A stretch of 39,742 nucleotides of DNA from Patescibacteria group bacterium (GCA_036171455.1 JAVHRB010000049.1:1-39742), one strand, 5' to 3'. Numbered from the stretch's first letter, positions 4,920-26,702 are shown. Translations and numbers: made by a program. The notes: generated from the letters alone by a model not told the origin.

Positions 4920-4928
4920 ACCGTACTC

Positions 4929-6236: not shown

Positions 6237-6376
6237 AAAACGTGCCAAGTATAACGAACTAAAATATAAGTCAAAACATAGATTTTTCACGAATACAAGG
6301 GTTTATATGAAAAGTCTATTTGCGTTCACGAAAAACTCTCTATAATACCATTCATAATATTCGTTACACCTCGCTT

Positions 6377-6754: not shown

Positions 6755-6760
6755 CCAACA

Positions 6761-6785
6761 AAGTCCGATTCCATCGGACTTTTTG
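6761..6785 (+). terminator. rho-independent terminator hairpin
   Basis: aagtccgat (6761-6769), loop tcc, atcggactt (6773-6781): a perfect 9-bp stem running into a T-run (6780-6784), 7 nt after the TAA of the upstream gene. Confidence 0.7.
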
Positions 6786-6791
6786 AAACCT

Positions 6792-8717
6792 ATGCTTACC
6801 TCGCGCATTTACAAACACCACCCCGACGAACGTACTATCCAAGTCTCCACGAAGCGTATTCAACTCAATGATCGTTCCACGCTCTACTTTCAAATTTTCG
6901 CGGAACAAAGCGCGGTAATTGCGCTGTTGGAATCTCAAATCGTCGAACTTTGTACCGATTACCAGCTTCGCAAAGAAAGTGAAGAAATTTTCTTTTCCAA
7001 GCTGCTTGCGGGCGTCAACCGTATGATTCAAGGACAGTCGCATACTTTTTCTCGATCGTGACTCCGAGCTTTTCTCGGGATTATTCGAGGATCAGAACTC
7101 CAGTTTTCCATCTGCGGCAACTATCAAACGTACCTTCAACAAGAAGATACCGTGATAAATATCGCCGATGGAATGAGTACCAGCGAAATGGAATTTTCCT
7201 ACGTTTCCAACGGTTCTATCCAGCCGGGAAACAGTTTGTTCGTATCCAATCGCGACCTTCTCAGTTTCCTCACCAAAGAAGACCTGTGAGAATTCAGTCT
7301 CGACCACGACCCATCCATTATAGAAAATCTTATTTCTCGAGAAGCCCCAGACGAAGTGGTTGACTGCCTCCTCTTCTTTTACGAAGAACATAATATCACG
7401 GAACCACTCAAACGTTTCTGAAGGTCTGGTCCGAACTTTTTCGATACTGCAAAAGAATTTATTGGTACGGGATATCGAGGTATTGCTGAGAAAATAAAGA
7501 CCTTAGAGCTGAAAGAGCGATATGAATCTGCTATTTCACATCCAAAAATCCAAGCATTCGCCAAAAAGAAGTCCGTCAGAATTGGTATGTTCGTGATTGG
7601 TATAACCGTTTCACTCTCCCTGCTCATACTTATAGTTCGGTCAGTTTTCTATACCAGTATGACGACTGCCGTTCCCGAAGAATACAAAACTAAACTTATA
7701 GAAGCGGAACAAATTATTGGAAAATCGACACGGGATATCGCCAATCGGGAACTTTTCAAGGAAAGCATTTCCAAGGCGGAAGCCCTCGTATTCGAAGTTC
7801 GGGACAAAAAAATGTTTGCAAACGACGTCAAAAGTCTCCTAGACAAAATTTCTGTTCTCAAACGGCAACTCAACGGGATTGAAAGTATCAGTCTAGACAA
7901 CAAACCCGCCGATTATTTATTGCCAGCAGGTACGATGCCGATAGCACTCCTCGAAAATACCAAGAAAAATTACGTCGTAGCGAGCAAAGGGATATACGGA
8001 CCGTTCGTTAAGGGAACCGAAACGAAATTCCTCGCGTTTCCCGATGACGAAACAGCGAAAAGCGCAGATATTACTACCGAGGGAAATATTTTCATCCTCA
8101 CGAATAATAATAAAATCATTCGTTTTTCTAAAGGCGTTTTCAGCTACATCAACGTAGAAGGACAAACGACTTGGGAGGCAAGTTCCAACATTAAAACCTT
8201 CATCGGGAATATCTATCTCCTCTCCGAAGACGGTACCCAAATCTACAAACACCGGCCAGGAGTCGTGGGATTCAGTGCGAAAGTTCCCATGATTGAAGGT
8301 TCGCTCATGGGAAAAAACGTTCTGGACTTTACGATCGACGGAGGATTTTACGTACTCCAATCCGACCTTTCTGTAGAAAAGTATTTCACTGTACCAAGTT
8401 TTTCTCGTACCGGAATTCTCTTGAATAAATTACCAGACAATTATCGAGTTTCTGGCGATCATCCAACAAAAATCTATACGGTCTCGAGTTCGAACTTTGT
8501 CTATATGCTCATTGATGGACGGGTATGGATTTTTGAGCCGGATTCCAAGAATTTCAAAAATATCCATGGAATCAAATATGTGGGACAGTTGGAAGTAACC
8601 GGACAAAGTATCAGTTCTCTCCTGGCTCCGAAAGACGGAGAAATAAACGTAGTCACCGAAAAAGGGATTTCCAACGTCAAATTCGAAGTTTCCGATAGCA
8701 AGATTATTCTCCGCTAA
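6792..8717 (+). CDS. single-pass membrane protein: cytoplasmic PP2C-like (apparently degenerate) domain, TM helix, extracytoplasmic beta-propeller-like repeats
   Basis: ATG 6792. ORFs 6639-7061 and 7587-8717 share one frame, bridged by a TAA/TAG-free stretch with TGA at 7059, 7287 and 7419. LGIIRGSELQFSICGNYQTYLQQEDTV and SIQPGNSLFVSNRDLLSFL resemble the PP2C core but lack the usual GDSR Asp. TM helix is MFVIGITVSLSLLILIV. The C-terminal half has repeated beta blocks (NIFILTNNNKIIRF, NIYLLSEDGTQIYKH, GGFYVLQSDLSVEKYF, FVYMLIDGRVWIF). TAA 8715-8717. Confidence 0.7.
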
Positions 8718-8743
8718 TGCTGTATATTACCGAAGGGATTCTC

Positions 8744-9298
8744 ATGGAAAAAATAGAAATTCGGGATCGAGAAAAATCCTATCTCGTTCTCAGTAAGGAC
8801 TTTGGGAAAATGCGTGGTTTCTATAAAGAAACACCAAAAACTACGCCGAGCGATATCGGAAATGTCATAGAAATCGCCATAGAAAGGAAATGAGAAACCA
8901 ATCATATCAAGTCCTGTCGTCCGAAATACGGATTTCACATATCAAATCTCGGTTTCGACGGCGTACACAAATTTCTCCTCATACTGGCGTTTTGTAAAAA
9001 GCAATTGCCCGATGGTGGGGGTGATGGAGCAATATATCGGGATCTGGTTTCTCTGGTCCAACTCTCGGAACATCACGATCCAAATATCCTCCTATTCCTC
9101 TGCGAAGCCCGACTCCTCTCACTGTTCCAACATTGGCCAGAACGATTGAAGAGTACCACTCTCGAAAAAATCAAAGGCCTTGCCGCCGAACACTCTCTCG
9201 AAGAACTTATTAAAATTCAAGGAATTCCTCAAGAACTCTACGAAACTACTCATCTTTACTTTCTACAATCGTATCCATGAACGAATTCATCTATATAA
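8744..9298 (+). CDS. hypothetical protein (weak RecO-like N-terminal OB-fold impression, not established)
   Basis: ATG 8744 (MEKIEIRDREKSYLVLSKDFGKMRGFYKE). Same frame as ORF 9005-9280. In-frame TGA at 8891-8893 and 9278-9280. TAA 9296-9298. Overlaps the pilD start by 22 nt. Confidence 0.5.
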
Positions 9299-10125
9299 CT
9301 ATCGGCATACTGTGAGCTATCCTCGGAAGCTTTGCTTCTGCCGTTATTCCACGAATCAAATACAAGCAGGATTTTGTCGCCGCACGAAGCGAATGTCCAA
9401 ATTGTCACCACCATTTGGGAGTTTTCGACCTATTCCCCATCTTTTCTTTTGTCTTTTTACTCGGAAAATGCCGATACTGCAAAGCAAAAATTCCTCCGTA
9501 TCATTTTCTTTTGGAATGAAGTATGGTCGGCGGATTTCTCCTCGTAGCCATGCGTTTTGTCGATATATCCGCAGTGGTTTTGGGCGATACAGCACAACTG
9601 GCACGACTCATATTCCTGCTGATTTCCATGTTTGTTACGGTGGTGTTTACGGCGTACGACCTCATGTACCTGGAAATTCCAGACGAGTTTATGATTCCTT
9701 TTCTCATTATCGCATTTTTCGTTTTGAGTGGAGCTCAATTTTTGCCGGCTGGTACATTTGAATATTTCATTGCTTTCAAAGATTATGAATACTTAAACGT
9801 AGTATTATATCAAGCATTTTTATGAGGCGTTCCCATCTTCCTTTTTTTCTATCTCCAACGGTTGGTTTCCAATGGAGAATGGATTGGTGGAGGCGATCTG
9901 CGAATCGCCATGTTTATGGGATTTGTCGGAGGGGCAAAAATCGCCTGGGTCTGACTTTTCCTTTCGTATATCATCGGAAGTGTCGTCGGGGTAGTGCTAC
10001 TCGCGATATACCGGAAACGATGAATGCAAATACCATTTTGACCATTTCTCGCCTGTGGCCTATGGGCGTCTATGGTGTGGTATGAACCCATGATTAGCTG
10101 GTATTTAAAATTATCATTAATATAA
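9277..10125 (+). CDS. pilD: prepilin peptidase / N-methyltransferase (peptidase A24, PilD family)
   Basis: ATG 9277. ECPNCHHHLGVFDLFPIFSFVFLLGKCRYCKAKIPPYHFLLE is the Cys4 N-terminal domain. YDLMYLEIPDE and GGGDLRIAMFMGFVGG are the two catalytic Asp regions. IPFGPFLACG is present. Six in-frame TGA, e.g. 10039-10041 = Gly of PFGPFL. TAA 10123-10125. Confidence 0.9.
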
Positions 10126-10203
10126 TAAATTAAATAGTCAATACATCATAAACCGACAAGCGCAAAAAAGAGCATATACTCCTACTAATTTCAAACAAAA
10201 AAT

Positions 10204-10740
10204 ATGACTGATTCCAAAAAAATAGCCGCTATACGCGACCTGATTGAAAGTGCACAAAAATCGATAACGACCGCGAGGAAAATACTTTCCACTATGGGAG
10301 ACGAAACAGAATCCCCCGATATGGAGATAGATTTGAGCGGACTTCAAAGCTATAAGAGCGGTCCGAACAAAATCGTCGAAGGGGTTTTTACCGGTGAAGC
10401 TATGCTCGGATCCGATGGAAACATGTATCCCGTTCCTCAAAATTATGCTTCGAAATCGCATCTTGTCCAAGGGAGCAAACTCAAAGCGACTATGAGTGCT
10501 GATGGAAAAATCACCTACAAAATCATCGAAGAAATCCCCCATGATACCCAAGTTGGTCTTATCACGATGAACCGAGATAAATACCAAGTCGTTTCCGAAG
10601 GCAAAACCTACAACGTACTCACAGCGAGTATAACGTTTCTCAAAGCGAATATTGGGGACAGTGTTTCACTCCGCTTGCCACATGGAAAAGAGGCCACCTA
10701 TGCCACACTCGAAGCCGTCATCCCAAAAGAATCAATATAA
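10204..10740 (+). CDS. hypothetical protein
   Basis: Intact 178-codon ORF even under the standard code (MTDSKKIAAIRDLIESAQKSITTARKIL...GKTYNVLTASITFLKANIGDSVSLRLPHG). TAA 10738-10740. No family recognised. Confidence 0.65.
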   Translation: MTDSKKIAAIRDLIESAQKSITTARKILSTMGDETESPDMEIDLSGLQSYKSGPNKIVEGVFTGEAMLGSDGNMYPVPQNYASKSHLVQGSKLKATMSADGKITYKIIEEIPHDTQVGLITMNRDKYQVVSEGKTYNVLTASITFLKANIGDSVSLRLPHGKEATYATLEAVIPKESI

Positions 10741-10761
10741 TTCCATCTAACTTTTTCCAAT

Positions 10762-12213
10762 ATGCGACGCTGATGAACCAATAGAACGAGTCCTCTGTCC
10801 CTTGCCGTCCCAATAATCATAGCCGTTATCGTCTTTGTAATCATTGTCAAAGCGGTAATGAATCTCGGAGCCAGTAATGCTACTACCGAAGCTACCAAAG
10901 CTGCTGCTGGAACCGCCAGTGTGAATATCTTACCGGCAAAAGATGCCAAAGTAAGTATCTACATGTCTTCCGATTCTCAAAACGAAATCACCGGTCCAAC
11001 CAAAATGTTCCCAACCGACAAGATGGTACGGGTAACCAATGGAGAAAGCGAGGTAGAAATAGAAGGTTCTACAGCAAAAATCTATATCGAAACCCTGAGT
11101 GAGCTCTCCTACAAAGGAAAAGTTACCGAACAACAGACATTTGAACTCCTCAATGGGTACGTATGGATGGATACTCCGAACGGGGATGTGTCACTCAATC
11201 TCAAGTTTTTTTCAACAAAGTTTGCACCCGGGTCAATCATTATTGCGAGTCAGAACACGAGGGCAAGTAATTTGTACGTCATCAAAGGAGAAGCGGAAGT
11301 GAAAACTGAAGGAGGAACGGCTCGGGTAGCGAGTAGTCAGATGATTTCCCTCTTGCAATCCGAAACCAAAAATACCAACCTCGGAGACAAATTAGCCCCT
11401 TTGGATGATTTTGTAAAACAATCGAGCATTTTTAAACGAAAGGATGGGGCTACGCTATTGGCAGCTTCCGATTCTGCTACCGTCGATGCCAGCGGGGCAA
11501 TCACGGACAATTCGACGGTTCCAACGGTTTCCAATAAAGTGATTTCTATTACCTATCCAGAAGACCAGATGATGGTGGATAATGAGAAGATTTCCGTCGA
11601 AGGAAAAATTCTCAGCCCAAACGTCAAACGGCTCACGATTGGCAAGCAAGAAGCGAAGATTTTGGTAGATCAGAATACGTTCTCTATCAAGGAATATCTC
11701 CTGACTGATGTCGTGAATTTTATCAATTACCAAGCCTTTGATGCGGCTGGCGGAGTCGTGGAAACTGGCGTCGTAACAGTAAACCTCAACAAAAAGAAAG
11801 TAACTACGAAAAAACCTGACGTAATAAATTACCCAGTATCCAGCAAAGATTTCAAGGTACTTTTTCCGAGTGAAAATCCGTATAAGACTACCGATACAGC
11901 TGTCAAGATCCGAGGATCATTCGCGCCAGATTTGGTCAAATTCATAAAGGTCAATAATTACCAGCTCCAACAGTTCAAACAGTTCGGCACCAGTTGGACC
12001 TACAACGCGAGTATCGACAATGGGAATATGGAAGAAGGGGTAAACGAATACCTCATTACGTACTACGGTACCGATGATTCTATCCTCTACACGAGCAAGA
12101 TCTATATCGTAAAGGAAAAGGCAGCTCCCGTTGTACTACCATGACTCGAAACGCCAGCAACCGGAACCATTCCAAGTACTTCCACGGGCAGCGGAACTGG
12201 TTCAAATCTCTAA
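10762..12213 (+). CDS. membrane-anchored FecR-like / Ig-like domain protein
   Basis: ATG 10762 (MRR-G-G-TNRTSPLSLAVPIIIAVIVFVIIVKAV; TGA at 10771 and 10774, then a TM anchor). VRVTNGESEVEIEGSTAKIYIETLSELSYKG...LLNGYVWMDTPNGDVSLNLKFFSTKFAPGSIIIASQNTRASNLYVIKGEAEVKTEGG resembles the FecR beta-sandwich. The C-terminal half looks like Ig-like beta domains. TGA 12142-12144 is read through to TAA 12211-12213. Confidence 0.7.
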
Positions 12214-12223
12214 TTCCAAAACT

Positions 12224-12937
12224 ATGTCCTGCCGACGTTCCGACTTTGTAAAAATATTTTTGGACCACGGTGGAAACTCAATTATTGAAGTAATGGTGGT
12301 AGTTCTCGTAGTGACCATAGGAGTTGTTTGAGCCTATCAAATAACTTTCAAGGGAGTCACTCTCGCAGCTACGACAGAGAATCGCATCAAAGCGATAAAC
12401 ATAGCTCGGGAAGGATTGGAAATCGTAGAAAATATACGAGATACCAATTGGGTGAAACTTTCCAGCGATCTCAATGGGTGTTGGGATGTGATAAATTATG
12501 ACGTTACCTGTATCGGCAGCAGTACGGGAGCTAGTACCAACAAAATCGTTCCCGGTTCCTATATTACTTCGCAAAATGCCAACGGAACTTGGGTTCTCAC
12601 TGCGGTAGCTGGGCCCGTAGGAACTGGATCAGTATATCGCTCGAAATTTCCTGTATACCTCGATACCAATGGTCTGGTTACTCAGTCGGGATGATATACG
12701 GCACTCTGTACCCCAACAGTAACGAAAAATTGCAAGACTCCGTTTACCCGGGAACTCATAATCACTCGGCCGACGGATTATTCCACTATCGATATCGAAG
12801 CGAAGATTACCTGGACGGAAATTGGGAAAACCGATCCGTTTGAGGTAAGAATACCGTATACGCTGTTCAATTGGAAATACCAGTTCTATTCATTTCTCCA
12901 CCCTTTGATTTCTCATAGTAAATTGATTAGCGGATAA
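12224..12937 (+). CDS. type IV pilin-like protein (prepilin-type N-terminal cleavage/methylation signal), 237 aa
   Basis: ATG 12224. [40 protein letters not shown] has a short basic leader, Gly at -1, Glu at +5 and about 20 hydrophobic residues. This is followed by [17 protein letters not shown] and a Cys-containing globular domain. TGA at 12329 and 12692. TAA 12935-12937. Confidence 0.85.
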
Positions 12938-13683
12938 TATTCCTATACAATGCCAAAGTACTTTCGCTCTCTTTTTTAAGTAACAATCCGATTTATATCT
13001 CTTTCAAATGCTAATCTATGTTCTATAGAAGTTCCGATCTTAAAAAGATTTTTTTAAATCACGGTGGAAACTCGATTATTGAGGTAATGGTAGTTATCGT
13101 GGTAGTAACCATGGGAATTGTCGGAGCCTATCAAATAACTTCCAAAGGTATAGTTTTAGCGGCAACGACAGAAAACCGCATCAAAGCAATAAACATAGCT
13201 CGGGAAGGATTGGAAATCATAGAAAATATACGAGATACCAATTGGGTGAAACTTTCCAGCGATCTCAATGGGTGTTGGGATGTGATAAATTATGACGTTA
13301 CCTGTATCGGCAGCAGTACGGGAGCTAGTACCAACAAAATCGTTCCCGGTTCCTATATTACTTCGCAAAATGCCAACGGAACTTGGGTTCTCACTGCGGT
13401 AGCTGGGCCCGTAGGAACTGGATCAGTATATCGCTCGAAATTTCCTGTATACCTCGATACCAATGGTCTGGTTACTCAGTCGGGATGATATACGGCACTC
13501 TGTACCCCAACAGTAACAAAAAACTGCAAGACTCCGTTTACCCGGGAACTCATCATTACTCGTCCGACGGATTATTCCACTATCGATATCGAAGCGAAGA
13601 TTACCTGGACGGAACTTGGAAAAACCGAACCGTTTGAGGTAAAAATACCATATACCCTCTACAATTGGAAATACCAGTTCTAC
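12224..13683 (+). repeat. tandem duplication of a 666-nt pilin module (period 794 nt): 12224-12889 and 13018-13683
   Basis: The two copies are collinear from their ATGs with no indels. 12426-12723 is identical base for base to 13220-13517 (298 nt), bounded by G/A mismatches at 12425/13219 and 12724/13518. The 5' 200 nt is clearly more diverged. Confidence 0.9.
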
Positions 13684-16600
13684 ACCGACTCCACAGCTCC
13701 AATCGTAAATTGCGTAGCGAGTTGGAGTTCTTGCAATGCATCTTGTAAACAAACCTATTCCATAACAAATCCTGCAAGCGGAGGAGGTACGGCTTGTTTT
13801 GCAGCCAACGGTACGATTCGTGCTTGTACTTGAGGAGCTTGTATACCACCTGCACCATCATGCGAAGCAAATCCCGGCTATGCTAATGCGACCTACACGA
13901 CCGGAACACCTACGGTGGCAAACCAGTCTTGGCAGAATACAAACCCGACCGGTGCTTGTTATTACGCATGTACGGGGATTTATAGTGGAACGAGTTGTAA
14001 TTTGCTGACCATTACGGGAACTGACGCTATAGGGAGAAGTTGGGCCAATGGGACCTACGCACCTACTTGTAGCGACTATCGATTTCCAACGAATCCAAAA
14101 ACCTATTCTGGAAGCACGGGAAACGGAATTTATCAATTAGATCCTGCTGGATGAAGTCCATTCAAAGCCTATTGTGATATGACGACAGACGGAGGCGGAT
14201 GGACGGTCATAGCTTCGGATGGTCCGGGAAATACTACGCAAAGCCTTTCGGCCCTCTGACAGAATCCAACCCCAACGACTGCTGGAATGATTCCCTATTT
14301 TATCAATGGGAAACTCAAGGACTATTCTACGGCCATGAAAGTCGTGAGTATAGCAGATCCGACAAAAAATATGACCTATGATACGACTCCAACTTGGCTA
14401 TGAAGTACCTTGAGTTTGGCGAGTTCCGAATACGGATATCTGTACGCTGGAGCTAATGGTTTCGAATGAGGGGCCAATGGTTCTCATAAGTGTAACTTCT
14501 CCATCATCGTAATCGGAAACCAAGCTTGCAGTGCAGGCTGGTCCACCCCCTATCCGACCAACGGTGAAATTTATGGTGCCGTTAAAGGCAATACCATTCC
14601 TGCCTACGGCGCTATCGGGCACTCTTGGCAATTCGCAGGAAACGGTTATGCATTCAGACTCTGATGGACTATTCCCGATCCAGCTTACAGTTCATATTAC
14701 AATAACAGAGTATCGTCCTATCTCATGATTCGGAAAGATTCGACTTATACAACCATTGTCGGGGATAATGCCACCGGGAGAAAGTGGAGCGACGGGTCAT
14801 ATGCCAATACCTGCAATGACTACCGCAATCCGGTCGTACCAAAAAAGTACCTGGGGAAAACTGGTGATGGAATCTATTGGATAGACCCGGATGGGGCAGG
14901 GGCAAACGTGCCTTACAAAGCCTACTGTGATATGACGAACGACGGAGGAGGATGGACACTCGTCCTCAAAGCTGACGGAAGCCAGAATAATTTCTGATAC
15001 AACTCGGCCTACTGGACCAATGCCACCACTCTCAATCCTACAGCTTTTGATCATGATTCGACGGAATTCAAGAGCGAAGGCTTCGGTACGATGAAATTCT
15101 CCGAAGTACAATTGGAAATGGATACGGGAATCATCAAGAAAAAAATAGTCTTGCCTGCATCGGGAAATTCACTTCAAGAAATCTTCAAACGATGATATCA
15201 AAGTACTTCATTATGAAAGAGTACCTGGCTTTCCATGGTACCCGGTTCTTCCCTACAGCCGAACTGTAATATGGAAGGAATCAACGTGACACCGTCGGGT
15301 GGATCCCGAAAGGCACGTATCGGTTTTTCCGCAAATCAGGAAAATGACTGCAATACGAACGACAGCGTAATCGGAATATGACTTACGGATGCTGCCTATA
15401 CCACGGGTAACAAATGCGGAAGTACCTTATGTAGTGCATGAGTTGTGGATACCAGCTCCATCGGATACCTCTATGTTCGTTACGATAATTCATCGGTTTC
15501 CGTAATCGGAGATAATGCCGCAGGGAGAAAATGGTCAGATGGATCATCTGGGACCAGTTGTTACGACTACCGATATCCTACCAGTCCGAAAGCTTATGTT
15601 GGTAGCACTGGCGATGGGACATATTGGCTCGATCCGGACGGGGTCGGAGGCCCTGGAGCTCCATACAAAGCCTATTGCGATATGACGACGAATGGTGGAG
15701 GATGGACTTTGGTTCTCAAAACCGATGGAAATCTATCAACTTTTGCCTACAGTTCTGCTAATTGGACCAGCAATACCCCCCTCAATGAAACTTCCTTTGA
15801 TCATGATACGACGGAATTCAAAAGTAGTGGGTTCAGTACGATGAAATTCTCTGAGATACTTCTTGAAATGTCCACCGGGGGTGTTAAATGAACGGTTGCC
15901 ATACCGATGTTCTGAACTTCCCTCAAAGACATTTTCTCCGGATGATATCAAAATGCTGCTGCTGGAAAAAGCGCTTGGATGTCCAGTATTGCGGGATCGT
16001 CATTGCAACCTTACTGTAATATGGAATGAGCCAATGTGATTCCAACGTGAGGGGCTCGTGCTCGATTATGATTTACGAGCAATAATGAAAATGACTGTGG
16101 AACGAATGATAGTGTTATTTGAGTGGGATTCACGGGACCAACCACAGCCGGAAATCTCTGCTGAAGCACCCTTTGTAGCAATTGAAACGTTTCCACTCCA
16201 TCTTTCTGATACGTGTATATCCGTTTCAACAATGCTTCAGCGCTAACTGTTATGTGAGACAATCTCTCGGGCAGGACCTGGTCGAACGGCGACTTTGCCA
16301 AAAGCTGTTATGATTACAAATATCCTACTTATCCTAAAATTTACTTTTGAAGTACAGGAGATGGAACATACTGGATAGATCCCGATGGAGTCGGCGGAAC
16401 TTCAGCATTTAAAGCCTATTGCGATATGACAACGGACAGTGGTGGTTGGATGGTATTCCAAAAAAGATTTGATGGTAGTGTTGATTTCTATCGAAATTGG
16501 GCCGATTACAAATCCGGATTCGGGGATACCAATTCGGAACACTGGCTCTGAAACGACAAATTGAACGTTCTTACGAGCGGTTCGAACGTGAACGAACTCT

Positions 16601-18321
16601 ACGTAGCATTGAAAGCAGCTGACAATACAGAGGTCTATGCGAAATATTCCTATTTCCAAATGCAGGACGAGGCTGGAAAATACAAACTTTCCGTAGGGGG
16701 GTATACGGGAAATGCTGGAAACGCGTTTTGAGGACACGACGGATATAATTTTACGACTTACGACCAAGACAATGATACCTATTCTGGGAACTGCGCTACA
16801 TCGTTCCACGGTGCATGGTGGTATTCCGCTTGCCACGTATCCAATTTGAATGGGAAATACCTTCCGGGTACACATCTCAGTTATGCGGACGGAATGGAAT
16901 GGTCAACTTTCAGAGGACAATACGAAGGGATGATGGAAACGAAAATGATGATTCGACCGACACACACAGTAATGACCTATATCATAGGTAATGACACAAT
17001 CGGTAGAAAATGGTCCGACGGCACGTATGCGAGCAGTTGCAATACCTATAGGAATCCGACCGCTCCGAATATCTATTCCTGGGATACCGGCAATGGAAAC
17101 TATTGGATTGACGTGGACGGGACTGGTCCATTGGCACCTTTGCAAGTCTATTGCGACATGTTGTCTGATGGAGGATGATATACCTACTATGCCATAAATT
17201 CCGGATTGAGCACCAGCGCCTACACCGATAACGACAGTTGCAAGGTTCTTGGTTTGCAAATGGTAATCCCGAGATCCAAATCCCATTGGCTTTCCATGAC
17301 ATCGAAATACGATAGTTCGTATTTCGCTACCGTACCGGGAATCTATAGTCCGGTAGGTGGAACATCCTATACGTCGTGCATCATGCGCGACCATGCGGTA
17401 TACAGTACGTGATGCCCCGATTGGCAGGCGCTCGACGGTGGGCATTGGTGGATACGAGATACTGTTTTTAATGAACCGAATGGGGATTATACTGCCGGAT
17501 GTTGGCTCTCGACGTATGGATGAGTTACCGCGACTACCATCAACAATGACCAAATCATCAACGATTATAACTGCAATTATTCGACCACGAAATATATTTG
17601 TTCTACCAATGACAAGACACCTTCGAACATCATAGTAACAGGAAACGACACTACTGGAAGAAAGTGGTCAAACAATACCTATGCGACAAGTTGTAATACC
17701 TACAAGAATCCATCCGCGCCAAGGTTTTATACGGGCGACATCTGAGATTGATCCTATTGGATAGATCCGGACGGAATGGGGACTGGAGCATTGCAATTCA
17801 AAACCTATTGCGATATGACCACGGACGGGGGCGGATGGACATTAGTAGGAAGAAGCGGAAACGCTTGTACCAACAGTGCCGACTATGGATTTTTCAAAAA
17901 CACTCTGACCGACCCTTCTGACATAGCCGAATGTTACTCAGCAGACGTGAGCAAATTGGGGTTCAGCAAATTGAAATTTTGAGGGTTCAGCGATACGGGC
18001 AATTTTGCCATTACACGAGGTTTGACTTTTTCAATGTCGGCATCAACGTTAATGAACGCGGCCAACAACGAATCTACTGCCGCTTGGAATTTTTCTTCAA
18101 CGGCTTGAACGGGCTTGGATTGTGGAACATGAAAGACTTGGAATAGATGAGTTTCTACCGCCATTAACAATACCTGATTTCCTTTTGCGTGTACTCATGC
18201 GGGTTGTTCATGACAATTGAACTGGACTGGAATCGGAAATACGAACAATTATTTCGAGTCATGCTATCTTCCTACCGACAATAGAGATTTATGACCGTAT
18301 TATTCCGTTTGGGTACAGTAG
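13018..18321 (+). CDS. giant type IV pilin-like adhesin (1767 aa): prepilin signal + pilin domain + TSP1-like Cys module + six fibrinogen-like YCDM..GGGW lectin modules
   Basis: ATG 13018 is preceded by in-frame TAA 13012-13014. Checked line by line, the frame is free of TAA/TAG up to TAG 18319-18321 and holds 38 in-frame TGA by my count. Residues 1-222 parallel the upstream pilin ([29 protein letters not shown]). Each downstream module carries GR[KS]W..G.YA..C..Y..P and G.G.YW.D.DG.....P...YCDM..DGGG. Confidence 0.85.
13711..13842 (+). other. thrombospondin type-1-like six-Cys module inside the giant pilin
   Basis: [45 protein letters not shown] compares with the TSP1 pattern WSxWSxCSxxCG...GGxxC......C....C. 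Confidence 0.5.
14005..18318 (+). repeat. six tandem protein-level modules (about 650-750 nt each) of the giant pilin; starts near 14005, 14749, 15499, 16243, 16975 and 17629
   Basis: YCDM codons occur at about 14170, 14923, 15670, 16417, 17149 and 17803. Modules 2 and 3 are close paralogues by eye over their whole length. The other modules share only the N-terminal 70-80 residues. Confidence 0.8.
16243..16977 (+). other. complete fibrinogen-related domain (FReD / fibrinogen C-terminal globular domain), module 4 of the giant pilin
   Basis: [68 protein letters not shown]...[16 protein letters not shown]...[37 protein letters not shown]. All canonical FReD motifs appear in order. Confidence 0.85.
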
Positions 18322-18501
18322 GCTCAATAGGCAAAAATATGTCCGAAATATTCCAACGTCAGGTTGAAAAAACAGGGATAATCATCGTGGGATTGTTTGT
18401 ATAGACAAAGTATTCGAAAAAGTTAGCTTTTATTTACCGCCTATAAATTCGGAATGCGGGTCGTTGTTTCGATAAAGCCAAAACTTCATTGTAGAAACAA
18501 C

Positions 18502-18542
18502 AAAGAAAGAGGACTCGGCTTGTCGCTGAACCCTCTTTCTTT
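18502..18542. terminator. possible bidirectional terminator hairpin between convergent giant genes
   Basis: aaagaaagagg (18502-18512) pairs with cctctttcttt (18532-18542): an 11-bp stem with a 19-nt loop. A second 8-bp hairpin gttgtttc/gaaacaac lies at 18463-18501. The loop is large and the U-tract weak. Confidence 0.4.
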
Positions 18543-18572
18543 TACGTATCAAACCCCGTTCCGATACCCCCC

Positions 18573-21173
18573 CTATTCCCCCACCACAAACTCCTTTTCC
18601 GCATTCAAAATCGTTCCATCCACGTAATTGGCCGAAAGCTTTACATTGAACGTTCCGCTTTTCTCAAAGATATGGTTCGGAGTCGGGCTCTGATCAATCG
18701 GAGTGCCGTCTCAGAAGTCCCAGGAATAGGATTCTAACTGTCAAATAGTACCTTCCTTCGTTCGAAATTCCACGATTTTTCCAACGATTCATTCAGATAC
18801 CAAACTTTCTATTTCCAATTTCTTCGTCAATTCCTTGATAACGAGTTGTCGTGATATTGATTCCTTGTCCCCATCGGTTTTTACGACGGTAAGTTTTACC
18901 GTATATTCTCCGGGAATGGAATAGCGATACATTTTCACGGCTTCCCCTTCAGAAGAAGGTTTTCCTTCTCAGAAATCATATATAAATTGCGATATCTTGC
19001 CAGAACGTACTTTAGAAGCCGACGCATCGAATTTTACATCGACCGTAGCATACAAATCATCCAAGGTATCGTTGCCATTAGAACTTATCTGAAGCGAAGG
19101 AACGATTTCACGCGATTTCCCTTCAATGGTAATTTTTTCGGTAACTTTTGTTTCATCGCCCGTACCAATTTTGGCAAATACGTACGTAACCAATATTTCA
19201 TATTGCTTTTCTTCAACGAAATTATAATCGATTTTCGTTCCTTTTTTTTCTTCGCCACCAATCTTCCAAAGTATTTCTTTTACTTCATATCCCGGGTTGG
19301 TCACTCGGATATTTTCGCCATTGAACGTAATTTTCTGGGGAATTTGTATATTCTGTATCCGATACGATCAGAAATCGTGATCAAATGTACCCTTAATAAT
19401 ATCCGTTCCTGATTCATCCGTCGCCATCAAGAGGGAATCGGTTCATTTTTTTGATAATTGTAGTGGTCGTTGAATCGTTATCTTTTCTACAAAATCAGCT
19501 TTGTTTTTTTCGGAATCGATTACTTCTGCTCTCACCGTATAGGTTCAGATACTCATAAACGTATACTCGAACGTTTCATCTTTCCCTACTGGGGATGCAT
19601 TATCTCAAATATACCAGCTAATATCGGTAATATCAGCCCCTTCTCTCGTTTTGAGGTCAAGGAGCTTGAAAGCGTACTTCGATGGTTCTACCAAATCCTG
19701 GGTTGCCTGTATATCTCATTGTATGACACTTTCAGATTTGGAATTAATAGTAAATACCCTATCACAAATTCCCGGTTTCTTTTTTGGTGTCTGGATTTCT
19801 AAACAAAGGTTCTGTTCAATGTCTTGAATTCGAACACTGAATTTTGCCTCTTCGGAAGATACGACGTCGAATTTCGGTCAAATATACCATTTCAGATTCC
19901 CTATTTTTTTGAGATCGGTGGCGTCGAACAAGTAGTTGGAAGCCGTCTTTTGAACGTTGACCGCACCAAGCAATCGAACCTCAGCGAGGGCAATATCCAC
20001 TCGTTTCGCCTCGCGCGTTACCCGATCCTTTCCACGATAATATCCCGTTGGAGCGTAATTGCCAGCTTTAGTGTATTCACAAGTAATACTCGTATCGGTG
20101 GCAGGATCTGTTCCTTCGTGTTTGACACCTCCGTTTTGGCAATCGATAAAATAACCTTCGATATCCAGGGATTTTCTCGCATATACAACATCCGAGGAAA
20201 GATCATATTTGAGGGTTATCGGACCGATAAGATTGTTCAAATCTCCCAATTCTGCCCCATCTTTGAAATCTTTGGAAAGCAAAAGCGTATTGTCATATAC
20301 GATTACCCCACCAGTAGGCCGAACGAAATCCTGAGCCCCAATCTTATCGAAAAGGAACGCCCAAAAACCGATATTGGAAAACAGGAGCATTCCCGTAAAA
20401 ACCGATAATACAATGAATATAGCCCGCTTCTTCTGATTTCCCTTGGAAAGGTATGATTTGAATAGGCAATATATGAAAACAATACTAAGAGTAAACGTCA
20501 GAGTACCGAAAATACCATTTACCAAAGTGGACAACAGCGCTTTGACATCCGCCGGGTTAATTCCAAAATTTATGAAAAATTTGGCCTGATCCGGGTTAAA
20601 TACGATGTATGCAAGAAATGAGCCAAGAAAGATTAATGATACGAAAAGCAGTGCTCACATAATCCGCATAATTTGTGCCGGGGTTACCGGATTTTTCTTT
20701 ACAACAATCGGCGGAGTTGGAGGTATGGCACCATCGGAAACCGGTGTACGAGGACTGACACTGGGACTGACACTGACGCTGGGACCGGCACTTGCCAATA
20801 CTTGATCGAGGATGCTCGCATTATTCTCGGAATCAACCACTGGAATAGCAGTGACCGGTGGTAATGCTGCCGAAGGAATCGTTGTATCAACTTGGCCTGG
20901 CGATGATATGATGGCACTTTCGGGAATGAACGATGTTGGTGCCGCTACTGCGGATGCCACTGCTGGATTCGGCATTATTGAAGGAGAAACTCCCGTGGGG
21001 AGGACTCCAGGAATTGGCACTATCGGATGAGAAACAGAGGGAGTTGGTATATTTGCCACTACCGTAATGGGTGCAGTTTCAGAAGCAATTGGAACCGCAA
21101 GGATTTCATCCAAAAAACTCGGTCGTCCAGGTGCTTCGTCAGGGGTATTCGGGGTGGGAGTATCGTTATTCAT
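18573..21173 (-). CDS. multi-pass membrane protein (866 aa) with Pro-rich N-terminal tail and 4-5 PKD-like extracellular domains
   Basis: ATG 21171-21173. ORFs 20655-21173, 19878-20534 and 18969-19304 share one frame, joined by TGA 20655, 19878 and 18969; the gaps translate cleanly. TAG 18573-18575. TM segments are ALLFVSLIFLGSFLAYIV, GIFGTLTFTLSIVFIYCLF and AIFIVLSVFTGMLLFSNIGFWAFLF. PKD signatures are YSWDF-G-DGTPIDQSPTPNHIFEKSGTFNVKL (G = TGA 18711-18713), FIYDFGEGKP...YSIPGEYTVKLTVV and ISWYIGDNAS...GTYTVRAEVID. Confidence 0.8.
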
Positions 21174-21203
21174 ACAGAAAGAGTAAATTCTAACGGGGAA
21201 AGA

Positions 21204-24200
21204 TTATTTGAGCCAATCCGGAAGATCATCGACGTTAGCTGTCGGTTGGATTTCCAACATGGGGGTCGTGATTTTCGGTTTCTTTGGCTTTGGTGGTTTT
21301 TCGGTTTTCTTTTCTGATTTCATACTAGCGGGTTCCGGAAGATTATCAGCAAGAGGGGCTGGTTCGGGAAAGCCGTAATTTTTTTCTATTTCAGCATCTC
21401 CGAAAATATCGTCTTCTTCGGGTGGTACGACTTCTGCTGATACTGGTGGTGAAACTGAAACTACCGGCTCGAAATTCTTTAACCAATCGGGTAGCTCCTC
21501 GTTTGCTGGCTCTGGAACTGGCTCTGGAACTGGCTCTGGAACCGATTCCAAAGACGGACTTTCCATTGATATATCCGGAATCGGTTCATTTTCCAATACT
21601 CATGCCGTTGGTTCATTAACTCCTGGAAGTTCTTCATCTCGTTCTTCCATATCGTTCGAGTCTTCTTGTGGTAGTGTCACCATTGACTCCGTCTCATTTG
21701 AATTTTCCAAGGAAGCGGCTACTGGTTTAGTTTCCGTTACATTCGAACCTACGAGCCAGCTCGGTAATTCAGATTCTGGAGGAGTCCCTATTGAAGGCGG
21801 TATTTGCGATTGTGAAATATTCGCAAAACTATCTTCAGTAGCAGCTTCTGGAACACGTTCAACTTCCGGTACGTTCGTAAGTCGATCCGTGGTACTTTTG
21901 AGCCAATCCGGTATTTCAGCAGTGACTTCCTGGGCTGGTGTGGTTCCAATTGAGGACATCGGATCCGTCATTGGGGCTATCGGAGTCAATACGGGACGGG
22001 GGGGTTCAATTGAAGTTGCAGAAGTACCTTGTGACAGAGAACCGAGAATATCAGGAGTATGTGATTGGGAAAATGGTATCGGTTCTACCGTCGGAGTCAC
22101 AACCGGTGTCGGAATTACCACAGGAGCTGGTCGTGGAACATTTACTAGTGATGGATTCGGTTTTCCCTTTCCAAAAACGCGCTCTATAATAAAATCCTGA
22201 AATCAAAGACTTCCATTTTTGTTCATAATCTTGAAGAAAATAAACAACAGAATACCCGCACCAACTACGATTCCGATAATCCATAGAAACACTTTCATAA
22301 TGTTCATCAGAAGTCCACTCAAACCCGTACTAGGTGCCGCAGGAGCCGGTGCCAACTGGTCCGAAGGAATATTCTTGCTACCTCCGTAGATAATAACACG
22401 AAGTTGTTCCTTGAGAATCAACTTGTCGCCATCTGGAATTTCTTTGTCATCCTTGATATATCCAAGGATTTTTTCACCGATAGTCTTATTCATTTCCAAA
22501 TTCGTTGGGTGGGACAAAATTTCTCAAACCAAGCCCGATTTTTCATCCTTACCGAAAATTTCCTCGTATTTCGTATTGCTTTTCGGAATAAGTTTTCAAA
22601 GTACACTGGTCGCGAGTCCGATATCATCCTTCGTTTCAGAATCCGTTAGGAGGAAACTATCCAGAATATCGAGAAATTCGCTTTTTACTTCATCCTTGAG
22701 AGCCAGTTCAGAAATCTTCATCTGGAAATCGATAATCGTTTTCGTTTTCTCACGATCATCCGGCCAGTTTTCCTGTAATTGACTCAATAGTTGCATGAGT
22801 TTGACTCTATCTCCTTCTGGAGCTTTGTTAGCAATAAGATCCTTAAGTGTCGCAAGACCTTCTTTTTCTTTGTCAGTAAGACCAGTTGGAGCTTTCGTTT
22901 CCGTTTGTTTTTCCGGCGTTACTACCGTATCCGAATAGGTTAGGAGTACTTTCAAATCCCGGCTTCCAAGTTTTTTTCCTGCTGCATCGAATAGGGTAAT
23001 TCGTATGGTCCGTTCTTTTTTCGCATCGAATTTTTTGATGACGAAAGGGGCTCCGCTCGTATACGAATCTGTACCTTTGTTATCGGCATCATCGGCAGGA
23101 TCACCATTGAGGTCAGTATCTACCTGGATATCAGTATCAACGGCATATTTGGCAACGCCTTCATTTTGTCCAAGATACAAATATACGGCTGCTGACTTGT
23201 TTTCTACGATAATAGTATTCCCTTCCATGCTTGGATAGGAAAATACATTTACCGAATCTTTGGAATTCTTTATCTTATTCGCGTTCACTACGTCTTTTCT
23301 CAGGGTAACGGTCGTAGTTTTGGTACTTGTTCCATCCCCCACTTCCAAGGTTACTTCCCTATTCTCCAATTCATCCGGAACCGTCACAACGAAACTATCG
23401 GGATTTTCGGAAGTGGAATCGCCTACGGTCCATTTCACAGTGGAAAATACTCCCGTAGTAGTATTGAACAATGCATAGGTGTTCCCCACCCCGATATATT
23501 CGAGATTCGGTACGATTTCATTCCGAACGACGATTTGTTGATATCTGGTATTAGAAATACCGCGATATCCCGCTTTGACTTTCATATTGTAGTTTCCCGG
23601 TACGGAATATTTATGCCGTACGGTCGGTTCCTTGGTCGTTTCATCATAAAATCCATCACCGTCGAAATCCCATTTGTATTCCACATCACTCGACAAATCC
23701 TTTTCAATAATATTTTTTACTGAAGCTTGGAAAGTGACTTCTTCTTCTACTCGAACTTGAGAACTGGAAGCTTTGAGTGTGATGAGTGGTGTATTAATAT
23801 TATCGCTCGCGAGCACAATGGAATACCGTTCATCATGAATTTCCTCGGAATTCACTTTAGCACCGTTAGAATCTTCCATTGATACTGCGAAAAAATATTT
23901 TCCATTGATCTTCGGTACGACAAATGTCGTTTTTGGCCCCTTGGTGATTCGAAAATCCTGTGGTTCCGGATCACTGTCGGTATAATAGTACCAAAGATAG
24001 GAAACAATAACTCCGTCAGGATCGACGGCATTATTGAGTACTACGCTAACCACCACAGGGTCCACATCGGTCTTATCAGCAGAAATGTCGATAGAGGCAA
24101 ACTTTGGCAATGCATTTTCCACTTTGACATATATGGTAGCATTACTGGTCTTATTTGATTTTTGGGATCGTATCGTTAGAGAAACCGGAAAACACCCAAG

Positions 24201-26702
24201 TTCGTCGAACTTGTAAGAAAACTGTTTCTGTGTTGAAGTCTTTCCCTGATATTTCCAAATATAGTCGAGATTCTCCGTTGTACCATCAGTATTCACACTC
24301 TCAGTACCGGAAATCTTCAGAGCATCAGTACGGTTCGTAACATAGGCTTCCCCGGTTGGGCAAGCATCAGGAGTCACCTCCATACTGTCGTTTCACTTGT
24401 TTACGCCGATAACGGCCTGAGGGGAATCCGTATCGACGATATAAACCTTTCGGGCTATAGAATTGGAAGTCCCAGAATCGGCATTTCAGCGAACGGTAAG
24501 CCGAACATTATACGTACCGGATTTCTTGTACGTGTGAAATATTCGTGCTTCACCAGAATTTTCCGTTTCTCCATCACCAAAATCCCATTCGAAAACGGTC
24601 GCTTCCTTGGATTCAGCAACGATGGCAACAGAAGTCCCGATTGGCGTGATTTTTGGAGTAACGATCAGTTTGACCGAAAGTAACGAACTAATCTGGATAT
24701 CTTTTTTCGCCTGAGTCGTTTTTCCCTGTTCGTTCGTTATATCCAACAATACCGTGTGCATACCTTTCGTATTGAACGTATATTGTCCCAACATTCCGCT
24801 ACGCAATGAATTATCAAGTTCGATTTGTTCTCCATCAATCGTCCAAACAAAGGTAAGTTTGCTCGAATCGAGACTGTCCGGGTCAAAACTCCGGGTCGCA
24901 TCGAACGAAATGGTATTGGGTGTTTCGGAATTGATGGATTTTGCCTCAAAATTCGCGATTGGATTTTTGGAATCAATCTGGACCCTCAAATTATCTGTAT
25001 CTTCTTTACCTCCGGCAGACACCGTCTTGAGGCGAACGATATAGTCCCCCATTCGGGCAAATTTATAATTGATCGACTGGTTCTTTGTGGTATAGAGCGA
25101 TTTTCCACTATCAGCCTCCAAGATACTCCATTCATAGGTCAAAAGCGCATTCGAAAGATTACTCGTAGCATTGAATTTGAAATCGTCACCAGCAAACCCG
25201 GTAGTTTTGTTAGCACGTATCGACGCTATCGGATCCTGAGAAATCAGACGGATAATTTTTTCGATTCCAATAGGGCTTTCATTGGTAGTAATTTTAATTT
25301 TCACTGTGTAAATACCTTCCTGAGCATATACTTGCCGTTCGAGTTTTGGCCCTCCATTATAGGAGCTAAGATTCCCATTGCCAAAATCCCACTCTGTTTT
25401 CATAATGGTAGCTCCGGCAGCTGGCGTACTGGAAGAAGCATCGATAACGAGACCGGCACGACCTTGATTCGGAGTAATTTTAAACGTATCGATACTACTC
25501 GCATTTGCACCATTGATGAACAGGAGGATATTTGCAAGTCGGGGGAGGACTTGAATTTCCTGAGTACCGACGAATGGCATAATATCGACTTTTCCTTTGG
25601 AATTCCGACTCGCGGAACTAATATCCAAATTTACCGTATATACGGATTCCGATGAAAATTTATAGCCAATAGAAGGTCCTTTCCCAATGACTTGTCGGGT
25701 ATTTCCTGCACCTCGAATCCACCAGACATAGTTCGAATCTGGAATCGTTACCCCGGAAGGATCTCGTGCTTCCGTAGCTCGGAGTGTACTCGTGAGCGGA
25801 GCATTTCACGAAGTCGGGGTAGCGGTGATTTTTGCGGTAATACTCCCAACCTTTATCTTTGTCAAAAAATCTTTGAGCGCATTTCCTAGACGTTCTATGT
25901 ACACATCAGAATCTGGATATTTTTGAATGAGCGCCAATTGGTTCAGTACGTTGTTGGTAAGACTGGTATTAAAATCCATGGTGGAATCCGAAAAAGTGTC
26001 CTTGGATTGTTCCAGGACACCACGAAGCAAGTTGATATTTTTGGTGGACAGCTTGCCATCGACTTCTTGTTCCTGATCCATGTCTTGCATGATTTTCAGA
26101 ATGCTGGAACGGTAATAGTCAAAACCTCGAGAATCGTTCGTCGCCGCAAAAGTGGTATCGATTACAAAAGGATTTCCCCACTTTTCCAAAAACGTTACCG
26201 GTTTGATCAGGCTGGTATTCGGAGTAGCAGAACCGTTTCCGATAATGAAAGTAGTAATGCTCCATGCGAAGAAAATAATCAATAGCCCGATAATGGCACG
26301 GAAAATAATTTTCTTTCCGCTTTTGACTTTTTCCTCATCGCCCGCAGCGGTCAGGATGGAAAATCCTGCCCACATAATCAGGATAACTACGATGAGTGTC
26401 AGGAATCCAAGGAGATAGATGATAATATCCTGAACGTACTGGGAAAATGTTTTTCCAGTCTCGATACCAGTAATACCGTCTTTCACCGTATCCGTTCCAT
26501 TTTTGAGAGAACAGTAATTTGGATCATTGGAATCAGCACTGTTACAGTACGGTACCTGCTCAGTATCAACACACAGTGGAGGTATACACCATGCTGATAC
26601 CGATGGCGTTGCAATGAGGGAAGATGAGTCATTTCAAACGAGAAATGGAGATGTCAGTATGACCAACATGATGATGAATCGCACCAAACGAAGCATATTC
26701 AT
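21204..26702 (-). CDS. giant surface protein (1832 aa): signal peptide, TrbC/VirB2-like (T4SS-pilin-like) two-TM domain, at least 7 PKD-like domains, helical region, TM helix, Pro/acidic tail with PDWLK repeats
   Basis: ATG 26700-26702 (MNMLRLVRFIIMLVILTSPFLV), with in-frame TAG upstream at 26745-26747. ORFs 25806-26486, 24486-25628, 22596-24383, 22203-22517, 21600-22121 and 21204-21596 all share one frame, separated only by TGA (25806, 24486, 22596, 22203, 21600); the linking gaps have no TAA/TAG. TAA 21204-21206. LIMWAGFSILTAAGDEEKVKSGKKIIFRAIIGLLIIFFAW resembles CPR T4SS-pilin-like proteins. PKD signatures are EWDFGDGETENSGEARIFHTYKKSGTYNVRLTV, YKWDFDGDGFYDE...YSVPGNYNMKV and TEWDFGNGN...GIYTVKIKI. 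Confidence 0.75.

Follow-up and report, generated by a model that had tools for sequence, protein, structure and literature searches.

Fibrinogen-related domains (FReDs) have key roles in the innate immunity and clotting of animals, and they are usually regarded as an animal invention. Among them, ficolins, FIBCD1 and tachylectin-5A (TL5A) recognise microbial surfaces via acetyl groups on sugars in a Ca2+-dependent manner (PMC3908420). Ligand-binding modules are also grafted onto bacterial pilins for adhesion, as in the modular type IV pilins PilB and PilC of Streptococcus sanguinis, which carry a von Willebrand factor type A (vWA) module and a concanavalin A (ConA)-like lectin, respectively (Raynaud et al., 2021, PMC8179133), and InterPro lists the architectures IPR012902-IPR002181 (8 proteins) and IPR012902-IPR013545-IPR002181 (2 proteins) (PMC8179133, Dataset S1). 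Here we describe a gene at positions 13018-18321 of a 39,742-nucleotide stretch of DNA from a Patescibacteria group bacterium (GCA_036171455.1, JAVHRB010000049.1:1-39742), the whole of which we call the window. It encodes a pilin-like protein of 1767 amino acids with six tandem modules, the fourth of which (module 4) is a complete FReD. Our favoured reading, to which we give a probability of roughly 0.6, is that module 4 is a native ficolin/tachylectin-type FReD within a minor, PilV-like type IV pilin of six modules, displayed as a Ca2+-dependent lectin for acetylated glycans that would serve in host attachment.

Module 4 is 43-53% identical to ficolin, FIBCD1 and TL5A in almost gapless alignments, with template modelling (TM) scores of 0.91-0.94, and it keeps their two Cys pairs, the DxDxD Ca2+ ligands, the Cys-His and Tyr-Ala pairs and an aromatic residue at position 405. 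Unlike them, it is encoded with UGA as glycine in a candidate phyla radiation (CPR) bacterium and stands fourth of six in a pilin-like protein. Animal FReD lectins follow a collagen or coiled-coil oligomerisation stalk, which module 4 does not, and the bacterial N-terminal prefix GR.WS.G..A.SC.DY of module 4 is absent from the animal sequences. All six modules match the NF040941 (GGGWT_bact) proteins of bacteria, archaea and phages, in which a head recurs with varied bodies; most members of this family combine a head of ~46 residues with a non-FReD body, whereas module 4 is among the few with a complete canonical FReD body. As in the S. sanguinis-type modular pilins, an N-terminal pilin module carries ligand-binding modules, but the 1767-residue protein departs from the studied examples in its six modules, its sub-threshold scores with pilin hidden Markov models (HMMs) and its uncultured, code-25 CPR host, and no FReD-bearing pilin has been studied. 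Other prokaryotic FReDs match PF00147 completely and are 42-65% identical to module 4 (about 50%, except for the closest relative, L001, described below), several of them sharing a WSDG...C.DY prefix; they are usually single C-terminal domains behind a signal peptide, a He_PIG-like domain or another anchor, and none is characterised. The FReD lectin domain, the GGGWT_bact family and modular pilins are known kinds, and what is unusual here is the organism and the elaborate six-module arrangement.

A fibrinogen-related domain encoded with UGA as glycine

The gene and the features that identify module 4 are the following.

13018-18321, + strand: whole gene, from the ATG at 13018 to the TAG at 18319-18321; 1767 amino acids, 38 in-frame TGA codons (Gly); uninterrupted as an open reading frame (ORF) with TGA as sense
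16255-16986, + strand: module 4, a complete FReD (residues 1080-1323), by PF00147, PDB matches, AlphaFold and Foldseek
16255-16449, + strand: head of module 4, containing SCYDYKYP and the A-subdomain Cys pair C1097 (16306) and C1135 (16420)
16348-16959, + strand: extent of the PF00147 match (residues 1111-1314)
16549-16551, + strand: TGA codon for the Gly of the FReD motif 'WLG', in an invariant alignment column

The 245-residue segment translated from 16243-16977 (+ strand) carries stop symbols at codons 5, 36, 103 and 163, which are the TGA codons at 16255, 16348, 16549 and 16729. This translation exactly reproduces the string and the four TGA positions given in an earlier note on this DNA, and the FReD hallmark motifs that the note had listed are all found in the expected order, ending in GAWWY..CH.SNLNGKY. 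Taking TGA as Gly gives a match to PF00147 (Fibrinogen_C) that spans profile positions 12-220 of 221 (E=2.1e-65, 221 bits, against a curated cut-off of 22 bits), so that by profile score the similarity is far above chance. The head of module 4 is in addition recognised by NF040941 with 56.7 bits (cut-off 30). Sequence comparison with the PDB aligned module 4 to human ficolin-1 (E=4.7e-59) with a single one-residue gap, and further matches were ficolin-2, FIBCD1, tachylectin-5A, MFAP4, angiopoietin-like proteins, tenascins and fibrinogen chains. An AlphaFold model based on a 37-sequence alignment reached a predicted local distance difference test score (pLDDT) of 90.9 and a predicted TM score (pTM) of 0.89; the modelled sequence was the public copy of the protein, with Trp at three of the TGA sites. 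Foldseek superposed this model on FIBCD1 with a TM score of 0.94 and a root-mean-square deviation of 1.7 Å, on M-, L- and H-ficolin and TL5A with 0.91-0.92, and also on the FReDs of ANGPTL2, MFAP4 and tenascin, with angiopoietin among the matches. The predicted structure thus has the FReD fold with its A, B and P subdomains. Full-length profile coverage, PDB matches, model and structural search agree on the complete canonical FReD that the earlier note had proposed.

The assignment of the TGA codons was examined throughout the window. Treating TGA as sense doubled the six-frame ORF coverage and extended the longest ORF from 599 to 1847 amino acids. The single in-frame TGA of the YchF gene aligns with Gly in the Escherichia coli and Haemophilus influenzae structures, and the four TGAs in the conserved part of MiaB face, in Bacteroides MiaB, the residues G, K, D and G and in no case W. 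Within module 4, one TGA falls on the Gly of 'WLG', and paralogous modules of the same protein have Gly at the sites of the TGAs at 16255 and 16348. Because TGA aligns with Gly in YchF, MiaB, 'WLG' and the sibling modules, UGA is, on this alignment evidence, glycine in this genome (code 25, not code 4), as the earlier note had stated. A scan for tRNA genes found none in the window. YchF is 92-93% identical to proteins of 'Candidatus Gracilibacteria bacterium', a name synonymous with Candidatus Altimarinota of the Patescibacteria group, which bears out the proposed CPR origin.

The gene is also present in a public assembly (GCA_036170835.1, contig JAVHPY010000078.1, L128), for which our literature search found no paper, and the public gene call on that contig likewise gives 1767 amino acids (P0271/P0241). 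These copies in the public protein collection have Trp at all 38 TGA codons, a table 4 reading; because they were translated in this way, they show Trp at conserved FReD glycines such as that of WLG. Between window positions 10018-21321 and the public contig, 41 of 11,304 nucleotides differ. The differences cluster in a duplicated pilin segment, where three identical changes occur in both copies, and in the module heads, and two of them alter the module 4 protein (S1141G and V1274G). This pattern suggests strain variation or polishing ambiguity in repeats.

We also considered that the FReD might be animal DNA, brought in by contamination, by an assembly chimera or by very recent transfer from an animal. 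The similarity search gives this idea its footing, since all source-named proteins among the best 120 matches are animal, at 45-54% identity. The DNA itself speaks against it: four TGA-Gly codons lie within the domain, one of them at the invariant Gly of WLG, and the frame runs unbroken into the flanking bacterial modules on either side. Module 4 has a GC content of 0.44, a GC content at third codon positions (GC3) of 0.46 and TGA in 4 of its 31 Gly codons, all matching the rest of the gene. Its head is 60-72% identical to the sibling heads, the same gene stands in a public assembly, and animal sequences reach at most 54% identity compared with 63-65% for the FReD of another recoded contig (L001). 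The remaining genes of the window are those of an ordinary bacterial chromosome (YchF, Mur ligase, MiaB, MoxR, a solute-binding protein, PKD surface proteins and pilins). Contamination and chimerism were excluded because of these bacterial surroundings and the matching GC, GC3 and TGA-Gly use, and an animal source in any of the three forms is scarcely credible. The domain is native to this genome, as the earlier note had held.

The predicted Ca2+ site and acetyl pocket of module 4

In FIBCD1, Ca2+ is bound by the side chains of Asp393 and Asp395 and by the main-chain carbonyls of residues 397 and 399, and the S1 acetyl pocket is formed by Tyr405, Cys414-His415 (a cis peptide), Tyr431, Ala432 and Trp443, the last being Tyr elsewhere (PMC3908420). 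We mapped module 4 onto the published site residues of FIBCD1, TL5A and ficolins (PMC3908420) through the near-gapless ficolin-1 alignment, which placed the corresponding positions as follows.

16768-16788, + strand: Ca2+ loop D1251-Q-D1253-N-D-T-Y1255-S-G1257, the counterpart of FIBCD1 Asp393, Asp395 and the main-chain carbonyls of 397 and 399
16792-16836, + strand: P-subdomain Cys pair and neighbours; C1259, C1272, H1273 and F1263 correspond to FIBCD1 Cys401, Cys414, His415 and Tyr405
16882-16923, + strand: other acetyl-pocket positions; Y1289-A1290 correspond to FIBCD1 Tyr431-Ala432, and Q1301 takes the Trp443 site, followed by Y1302

D1251 and D1253 are conserved in a loop of the same length as that of FIBCD1, which points to a Ca2+ site, and both Cys pairs predicted from the alignment (C1097/C1135 and C1259/C1272) occupy invariant or nearly invariant columns. 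The acidic Ca2+ loop and the adjoining Cys pair claimed in the earlier note are therefore borne out by the conservation of D1251, D1253 and C1259-C1272. In the pocket, C1272, H1273, Y1289 and A1290 are conserved, Y1289 being aligned with the Tyr271 that is mutated in the M-ficolin of PDB entry 2WNP, and F1263 at the Tyr405 position has its counterpart in human M-ficolin, which likewise has Phe. Five of the six positions are thus compatible with an acetyl pocket. The sixth is occupied by Gln1301, in place of the Trp443 of FIBCD1 and the Tyr of ficolins and TL5A, and this exchange could weaken or alter acetyl binding. Because of it, the pocket of module 4 is, as far as the alignment tells, largely but not fully canonical, and the ficolin- and tachylectin-type pocket suggested in the earlier note is compatible at five residues and differs at this one.

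A domain of this fold need not bind acetylated sugars. Module 4 could have a protein ligand, as do fibrinogen gamma, angiopoietins and tenascins, or be a binding-dead structural spacer. The loss of the aromatic wall at Gln1301 and of the Tyr405 hydroxyl at F1263 would fit such a role, as would the Tyr that the sister FReD of L001 has at the His415 position and the fact that FReDs of the same fold, with tenascin and angiopoietin among the structural matches, bind proteins. Against this, the closest solved relatives in both sequence and structure are the acetyl-binding M- and L-ficolins, FIBCD1 and TL5A, and the equivalents of the Ca2+ ligands, the Cys401-Cys414 pair, His415, Tyr431 and Ala432 are retained; M-ficolin, moreover, binds acetyl groups in S1 with Phe at 405, and Tyr1302 beside Gln1301 could fill the wall. 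We consider a role other than acetyl-sugar binding quite unlikely.

The pilin-like protein and its surroundings

The remainder of the protein is organised as follows.

13018-13701, + strand: leader and pilin module (residues 1-228), with Gly at -1, Glu at +5 and ~20 hydrophobic residues, as read from the sequence
13702-14016, + strand: Cys-rich linker (residues 229-333), without a Pfam match
14017-14760, + strand: module 1, GGGWT head and a body of unknown family
14761-15507, + strand: module 2, GGGWT head and a body paralogous to that of module 3
15508-16254, + strand: module 3, GGGWT head and a body 60% identical to that of module 2
16987-17640, + strand: module 5, divergent head and a body common to Myxococcales/Polyangiaceae proteins and viral contigs
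17641-18318, + strand: module 6, GGGWT head and a body of unknown family

After the pilin module of ~228 residues and the Cys-rich linker, the six modules of 218-249 residues each begin with a head of ~65 residues with the consensus G(D/N)..GR.WS.G..A.SC.DY..P....Y.G.TG.G.YWIDPDG......YCDMT.DGGGW. All six heads match NF040941, the 'fibrinogen-like YCDxxxxGGGW domain' (279 bits in total), and PF00147 positions ~11-59, and module 4 is the only one of the six in which the FReD continues past the head. The bodies are mutually unrelated except for those of modules 2 and 3. The latter two are ~30% identical to a deltaproteobacterial protein, the body of module 2 being 29% identical to L082; in the comparison of module 2 with PDB sequences only the head matched. 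The body of module 5 is 41-48% identical to Myxococcales and Polyangiaceae proteins (L028, L060, L072, L078) and 38% to viral ones (L126, L127), and for the body of module 1 no counterpart was found in the fetched loci. The Cys-rich linker reads 'SWSSCNASC...GGGTAC...IRACTGGAC' and resembles a thrombospondin type 1 repeat; its Pfam search returned no family even at E<=1.

Two features of the upstream DNA bear on the nature of the N-terminal module.

9277-10125, + strand: prepilin peptidase (PilD-like), A24_N_bact E=1.7e-23 and Peptidase_A24 E=7.8e-7; the public gene call agrees
12224-12937, + strand: paralogue of the pilin module alone, 237 amino acids, directly upstream of the 1767-residue gene

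A Gly at -1 and a Glu at +5 followed by a hydrophobic helix are the signature of class III (prepilin) signals. The N-terminus has a basic leader that ends in Gly, then Glu at +5 and a hydrophobic helix, and is accordingly a predicted class III signal, and at a distance of ~3 kb upstream, on the same strand, is the gene for the prepilin peptidase. Since the scores with pilin profiles are below threshold, the pilin assignment rests on these leader features and on the peptidase. The earlier note had placed the FReD in frame inside a pilin gene; on this evidence the gene is pilin-like. The short pilin gene and the large gene share a DNA repeat (12212-12511 and 13006-13305, 85% identity), and the near-identical 237-residue copy stops where the Cys-rich linker of the large protein begins. 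The short gene may encode a partner pilin or serve as a substrate for recombination.

Pilin-borne FReDs recur elsewhere. A contig labelled as uncultured Candidatus Peribacteria (L004, CAYZVC010000003.1, positions 1-7323) is TGA-recoded, with 6-27 in-frame TGAs per pilin gene, and carries a tandem array of four modular pilins whose C-terminal modules differ: one has a FReD, one a GGGWT head followed by a different body, one a ConA-like lectin and one a region rich in Gly. Two of these pilins have above-threshold N_methyl matches, one of them with Laminin_G_3 (ConA-like, E=3.8e-27) and the other with a GGGWT head and a non-FReD body. The FReD ORF runs off the end of the contig; it shares 84% identity with residues 149-222 of the neighbouring pilin and 64% from there up to 'CDMTT.GGGW', beyond which the bodies are unrelated. 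Because it shares the pilin-proximal part with an adjacent N_methyl pilin, we take this ORF as a FReD mounted on a pilin; judging from these alignments, a second recoded CPR lineage carries a complete FReD in this way, and adjacent paralogues swap bodies exactly at the head. Peregrinibacteria use the standard code. TGA recoding sits oddly with the Peribacteria label of this contig, and either the label or the code assignment is questionable. Other CPR pilins with GGGWT heads come from Saccharibacteria (L029) and Peregrinibacteria (L042). A similar exchange of bodies is seen on a proteobacterial-type contig of GC 0.62 (L149, Ga0157369_10000012, positions 5710-11954), where a row of paralogous genes has a common 'RGYAVL + hydrophobic' N-terminal anchor, a shared 'GWGNPFGYC...SAGKDG.FQTTCAQA' module and RKWSDG...GGGWT heads with a different body each, including one complete FReD (PF00147 E=1.9e-60). 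These paralogues had no match to pilin or PilX profiles.

Expression of type IV pili is reported for Gracilibacteria, which are believed to be host-attached (PMC11452946), and their relative Vampirococcus (Absconditabacteria) has pili as well as giant surface proteins proposed as adhesins (PMC8080830). On our favoured reading, PilD would remove the leader after Gly17, and the hydrophobic N-terminal helix would then insert the protein into a type IV pilus or place it at the pilus tip, where the chain of six modules may provide multivalent adhesion. The part of module 4 would be to recognise, in a Ca2+-dependent way, acetylated sugars (GlcNAc, GalNAc or ManNAc-type) on the surface of a host or prey, with peptidoglycan, O-antigen, capsule and S-layer glycans as candidate ligand carriers, and the other five modules, with like heads and different bodies, might broaden the ligand range.

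Several observations, in addition to Gln1301 and the Tyr of the sister FReD in L001, weigh against this proposal. PF07963 (N_methyl) scored 19.0-20.1 bits, below its cut-off of 21.2, and TIGR02523 (PilV) 21-23 bits (best E=7.6e-5), below its cut-off of 52.2. The residue at +1 of the pilin is Asn where Phe or Met is usual, a PDB sequence search with the pilin module returned no match, and an AlphaFold model of that module from its sequence alone had a pLDDT of only 33. Module 4 is internal, fourth of six, and not terminal. Among the window genes scanned, the PilD-like peptidase was the only recognised pilus gene, with no PilB, PilC or PilM-O, and in the protein collection no whole-protein orthologue with the six-module architecture was found beyond the gene itself.

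The sub-threshold pilin scores and the unusual Asn at +1, together with the large size of 1767 residues for a pilin, would also fit a protein that is displayed on the surface without being a pilus subunit, its pilin-like N-terminus serving as a membrane anchor or export signal and its modules forming part of a fibrous adhesive coat. Giant PKD surface proteins are encoded next door, giant surface proteins of Absconditabacteria have been proposed as adhesins (PMC8080830), and the FReD/GGGWT proteins of the proteobacterial-type contig L149 have a hydrophobic N-terminus that is not of class III. Nevertheless, the Gly(-1)/Glu(+5) and hydrophobic helix form a class III signature, a prepilin peptidase is encoded in the same cluster, a short pilin with a like N-terminus is encoded directly upstream, the FReD of L004 is borne by a protein paralogous to bona fide N_methyl pilins, and long multi-domain modular pilins are documented (PMC8179133). 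We therefore regard surface display outside a pilus as unlikely, if somewhat less so than a module 4 that does not bind acetyl sugars, and retain the pilus-borne lectin as our preferred interpretation.

Downstream of the gene, an 866-residue protein with Pfam PKD-domain matches is encoded directly adjacent on the opposite strand (18573-21173, - strand), followed in the same region by a very large surface protein of 1832 residues (21204-26702, - strand), and this region looks like a cell-surface or adhesion gene neighbourhood. Further on, at 34380-36860 (- strand), lies a gene for a second giant pilin-like protein (826 residues) with a canonical LLGFTLVELIVVITILAILGAIGF N-terminus, which resembles the pilins of the L004 array, and with long Cys-rich repeats.

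Relatives and origin of the domain

A search of 5.8 billion proteins with module 4 returned 844 matches at E<=1e-10. As every source-named protein among the best 120 is animal, complete FReDs are, on the sequence matches, mostly metazoan, yet they are present in prokaryotes too. A scan of prokaryotes with one genome per GTDB species gave at least 416 related stretches, most of them head only. Complete FReDs were found in the metagenome-assembled genome (MAG) labelled Peribacteria (L004, 50% identity to module 4), in Castellaniella sp. GW247-6E4 (L005, 42%), in a Pseudomonadales MAG (L006, 42%) and in a Myxococcota MAG (L008, 47%); a Bradymonadia MAG (L007) has two altered FReD copies. Metagenomic FReDs on gene-dense bacterial contigs were also identified (L149-L151, of 681-781 amino acids with PF00147 E=1.9e-60, as well as L165 and L181). 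The closest relative of module 4 is the C-terminal FReD encoded on JGI contig Ga0376277_0006988 (L001), with 63-65% identity, which belongs to another TGA-recoded genome, its ApbE being broken into pieces under table 11. Six GGGWT heads in one polypeptide were not seen elsewhere in the protein collection.

The earlier note had described FReDs as overwhelmingly metazoan. The predominance of animals among complete FReDs stands, and the prokaryotic set is small and uncharacterised, so that module 4 is not a member of a large characterised bacterial clade. The rarity was overstated, however, given the curated family NF040941, the at least 416 GTDB loci, the complete domains in scattered bacteria and the pilin-FReD architectures in InterPro, and the uniqueness that the note implied is not established. 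Our literature search found no paper on bacterial or CPR FReDs and none discussing pilin-FReD architectures.

In deposited phages we found the head only, with no FReD body. Cyanophage S-RIM14 and the Synechococcus phages S-ShM2 and S-SSM2, which are T4-like, carry the head in hypothetical proteins (records H1-H12, ~31.6-34.2 kb), where it is 51% identical over 47 residues. The GGGWT head is also found in 45 IMG/VR viral contigs, mostly as head only. Two further loci were inspected. In a MAG of GC 0.39 (L012, CBDDTI010000143.1, positions 5775-6089), a FReD fragment has an abrupt start within the domain, as a eukaryotic exon would, and is possibly eukaryotic contamination of a species-representative MAG. 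On two Logan contigs of GC 0.59 (L002/L003, SRR32944843/SRR32944839, positions 10001-11098), a 365-residue protein (P0008) combines a He_PIG-like region with a complete FReD and is surrounded by many small ORFs of unknown function; a phage origin was dropped, as none of seven neighbouring proteins had a PHROG match.

Head and body of module 4 have different affinities. The head is most similar to its siblings, above all to that of module 3, at the 60-72% identity given above, compared with 46-56% to the heads of other FReDs (L001, 49%), whereas the body is 64% identical to that of L001 and unrelated to the sibling bodies. Because the head resembles the siblings while the body resembles L001, module 4 probably has a mosaic history, with a head of local type and a FReD body, or else the L001 head has diverged unusually fast. 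The sibling heads are 63-84% identical in DNA and have no long identical tracts; by this measure they are old duplicates, and recent gene conversion between heads was rejected, the DNA being just 63-84% identical.

Neighbour-joining (NJ) trees with Kimura distances and 200 bootstraps grouped module 4 with L001 in 88-94% of replicates. The position of this pair varied: with the head included, 103 of 200 replicates kept the animals monophyletic without it, whereas with the body only, 139 of 200 placed it inside an animals-only group, usually beside long-branch fibrinogen-related proteins (FREPs) of mosquitoes. We trust neither placement. Twelve diagnostic columns gave a mixed signal (in the body, 2 of prokaryote type, 4 of animal type and 3 of neither), and in outgroup-rooted NJ trees the other canonical prokaryotic FReDs branched, with weak support, between the animals on one side and divergent prokaryotic FReD-like domains on the other. 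Animal and other prokaryotic FReDs are alike ~50% identical to module 4. The phylogeny with metazoan and bacterial FReDs that the earlier note had proposed thus yields the pairing with L001, and neither NJ nor the diagnostic sites place the pair. Some mosquito FREPs (Anopheles and Topomyia; P0078, P0090, P0095) share 'AGNAFGG', 'WSTFRG' and 'KMMIRP' with module 4, motifs that other animal FReDs lack; convergence or long-branch attraction seems more likely here than real kinship.

An old inter-domain transfer followed by amelioration, direction open, as proposed in the earlier note, is possible from the sequence comparisons, and the same data fit equally well a FReD body that is a long-standing, rare member of a prokaryotic module family. 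Module 4 belongs with the bacterial GGGWT-head family, in which the head is constant, the bodies are exchanged and a canonical FReD body is rare. We can also imagine, with considerable doubt, that the GGGWT head of ~60 residues is an ancient prokaryotic adaptor with exchangeable ligand-binding bodies, an exchange seen among the adjacent paralogues of L004 and L149 and among the six modules here, that the canonical FReD body is one of these prokaryotic bodies, and that the animal FReDs (ficolins, fibrinogen, angiopoietins and tenascins) descend from a bacterial adhesin toolkit, from which the head-sharing intelectins and collagen C-propeptides would perhaps derive as well.

These results overturn nothing, as NCBIfam and InterPro already contain FReD-like domains of bacteria and architectures that join a pilin to a FReD. 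What they add is a near-canonical FReD, natively encoded with UGA as Gly on the putative pilus-type adhesin of a CPR bacterium that is uncultured and depends on a host, an arrangement which recurs in a second recoded CPR genome. The small, defined set of prokaryotic FReDs and head-only relatives is useful for testing the origin of the domain. Besides, the finding raises the testable idea that episymbionts may recognise the envelopes of their hosts by the chemistry that animal lectins use on bacteria.

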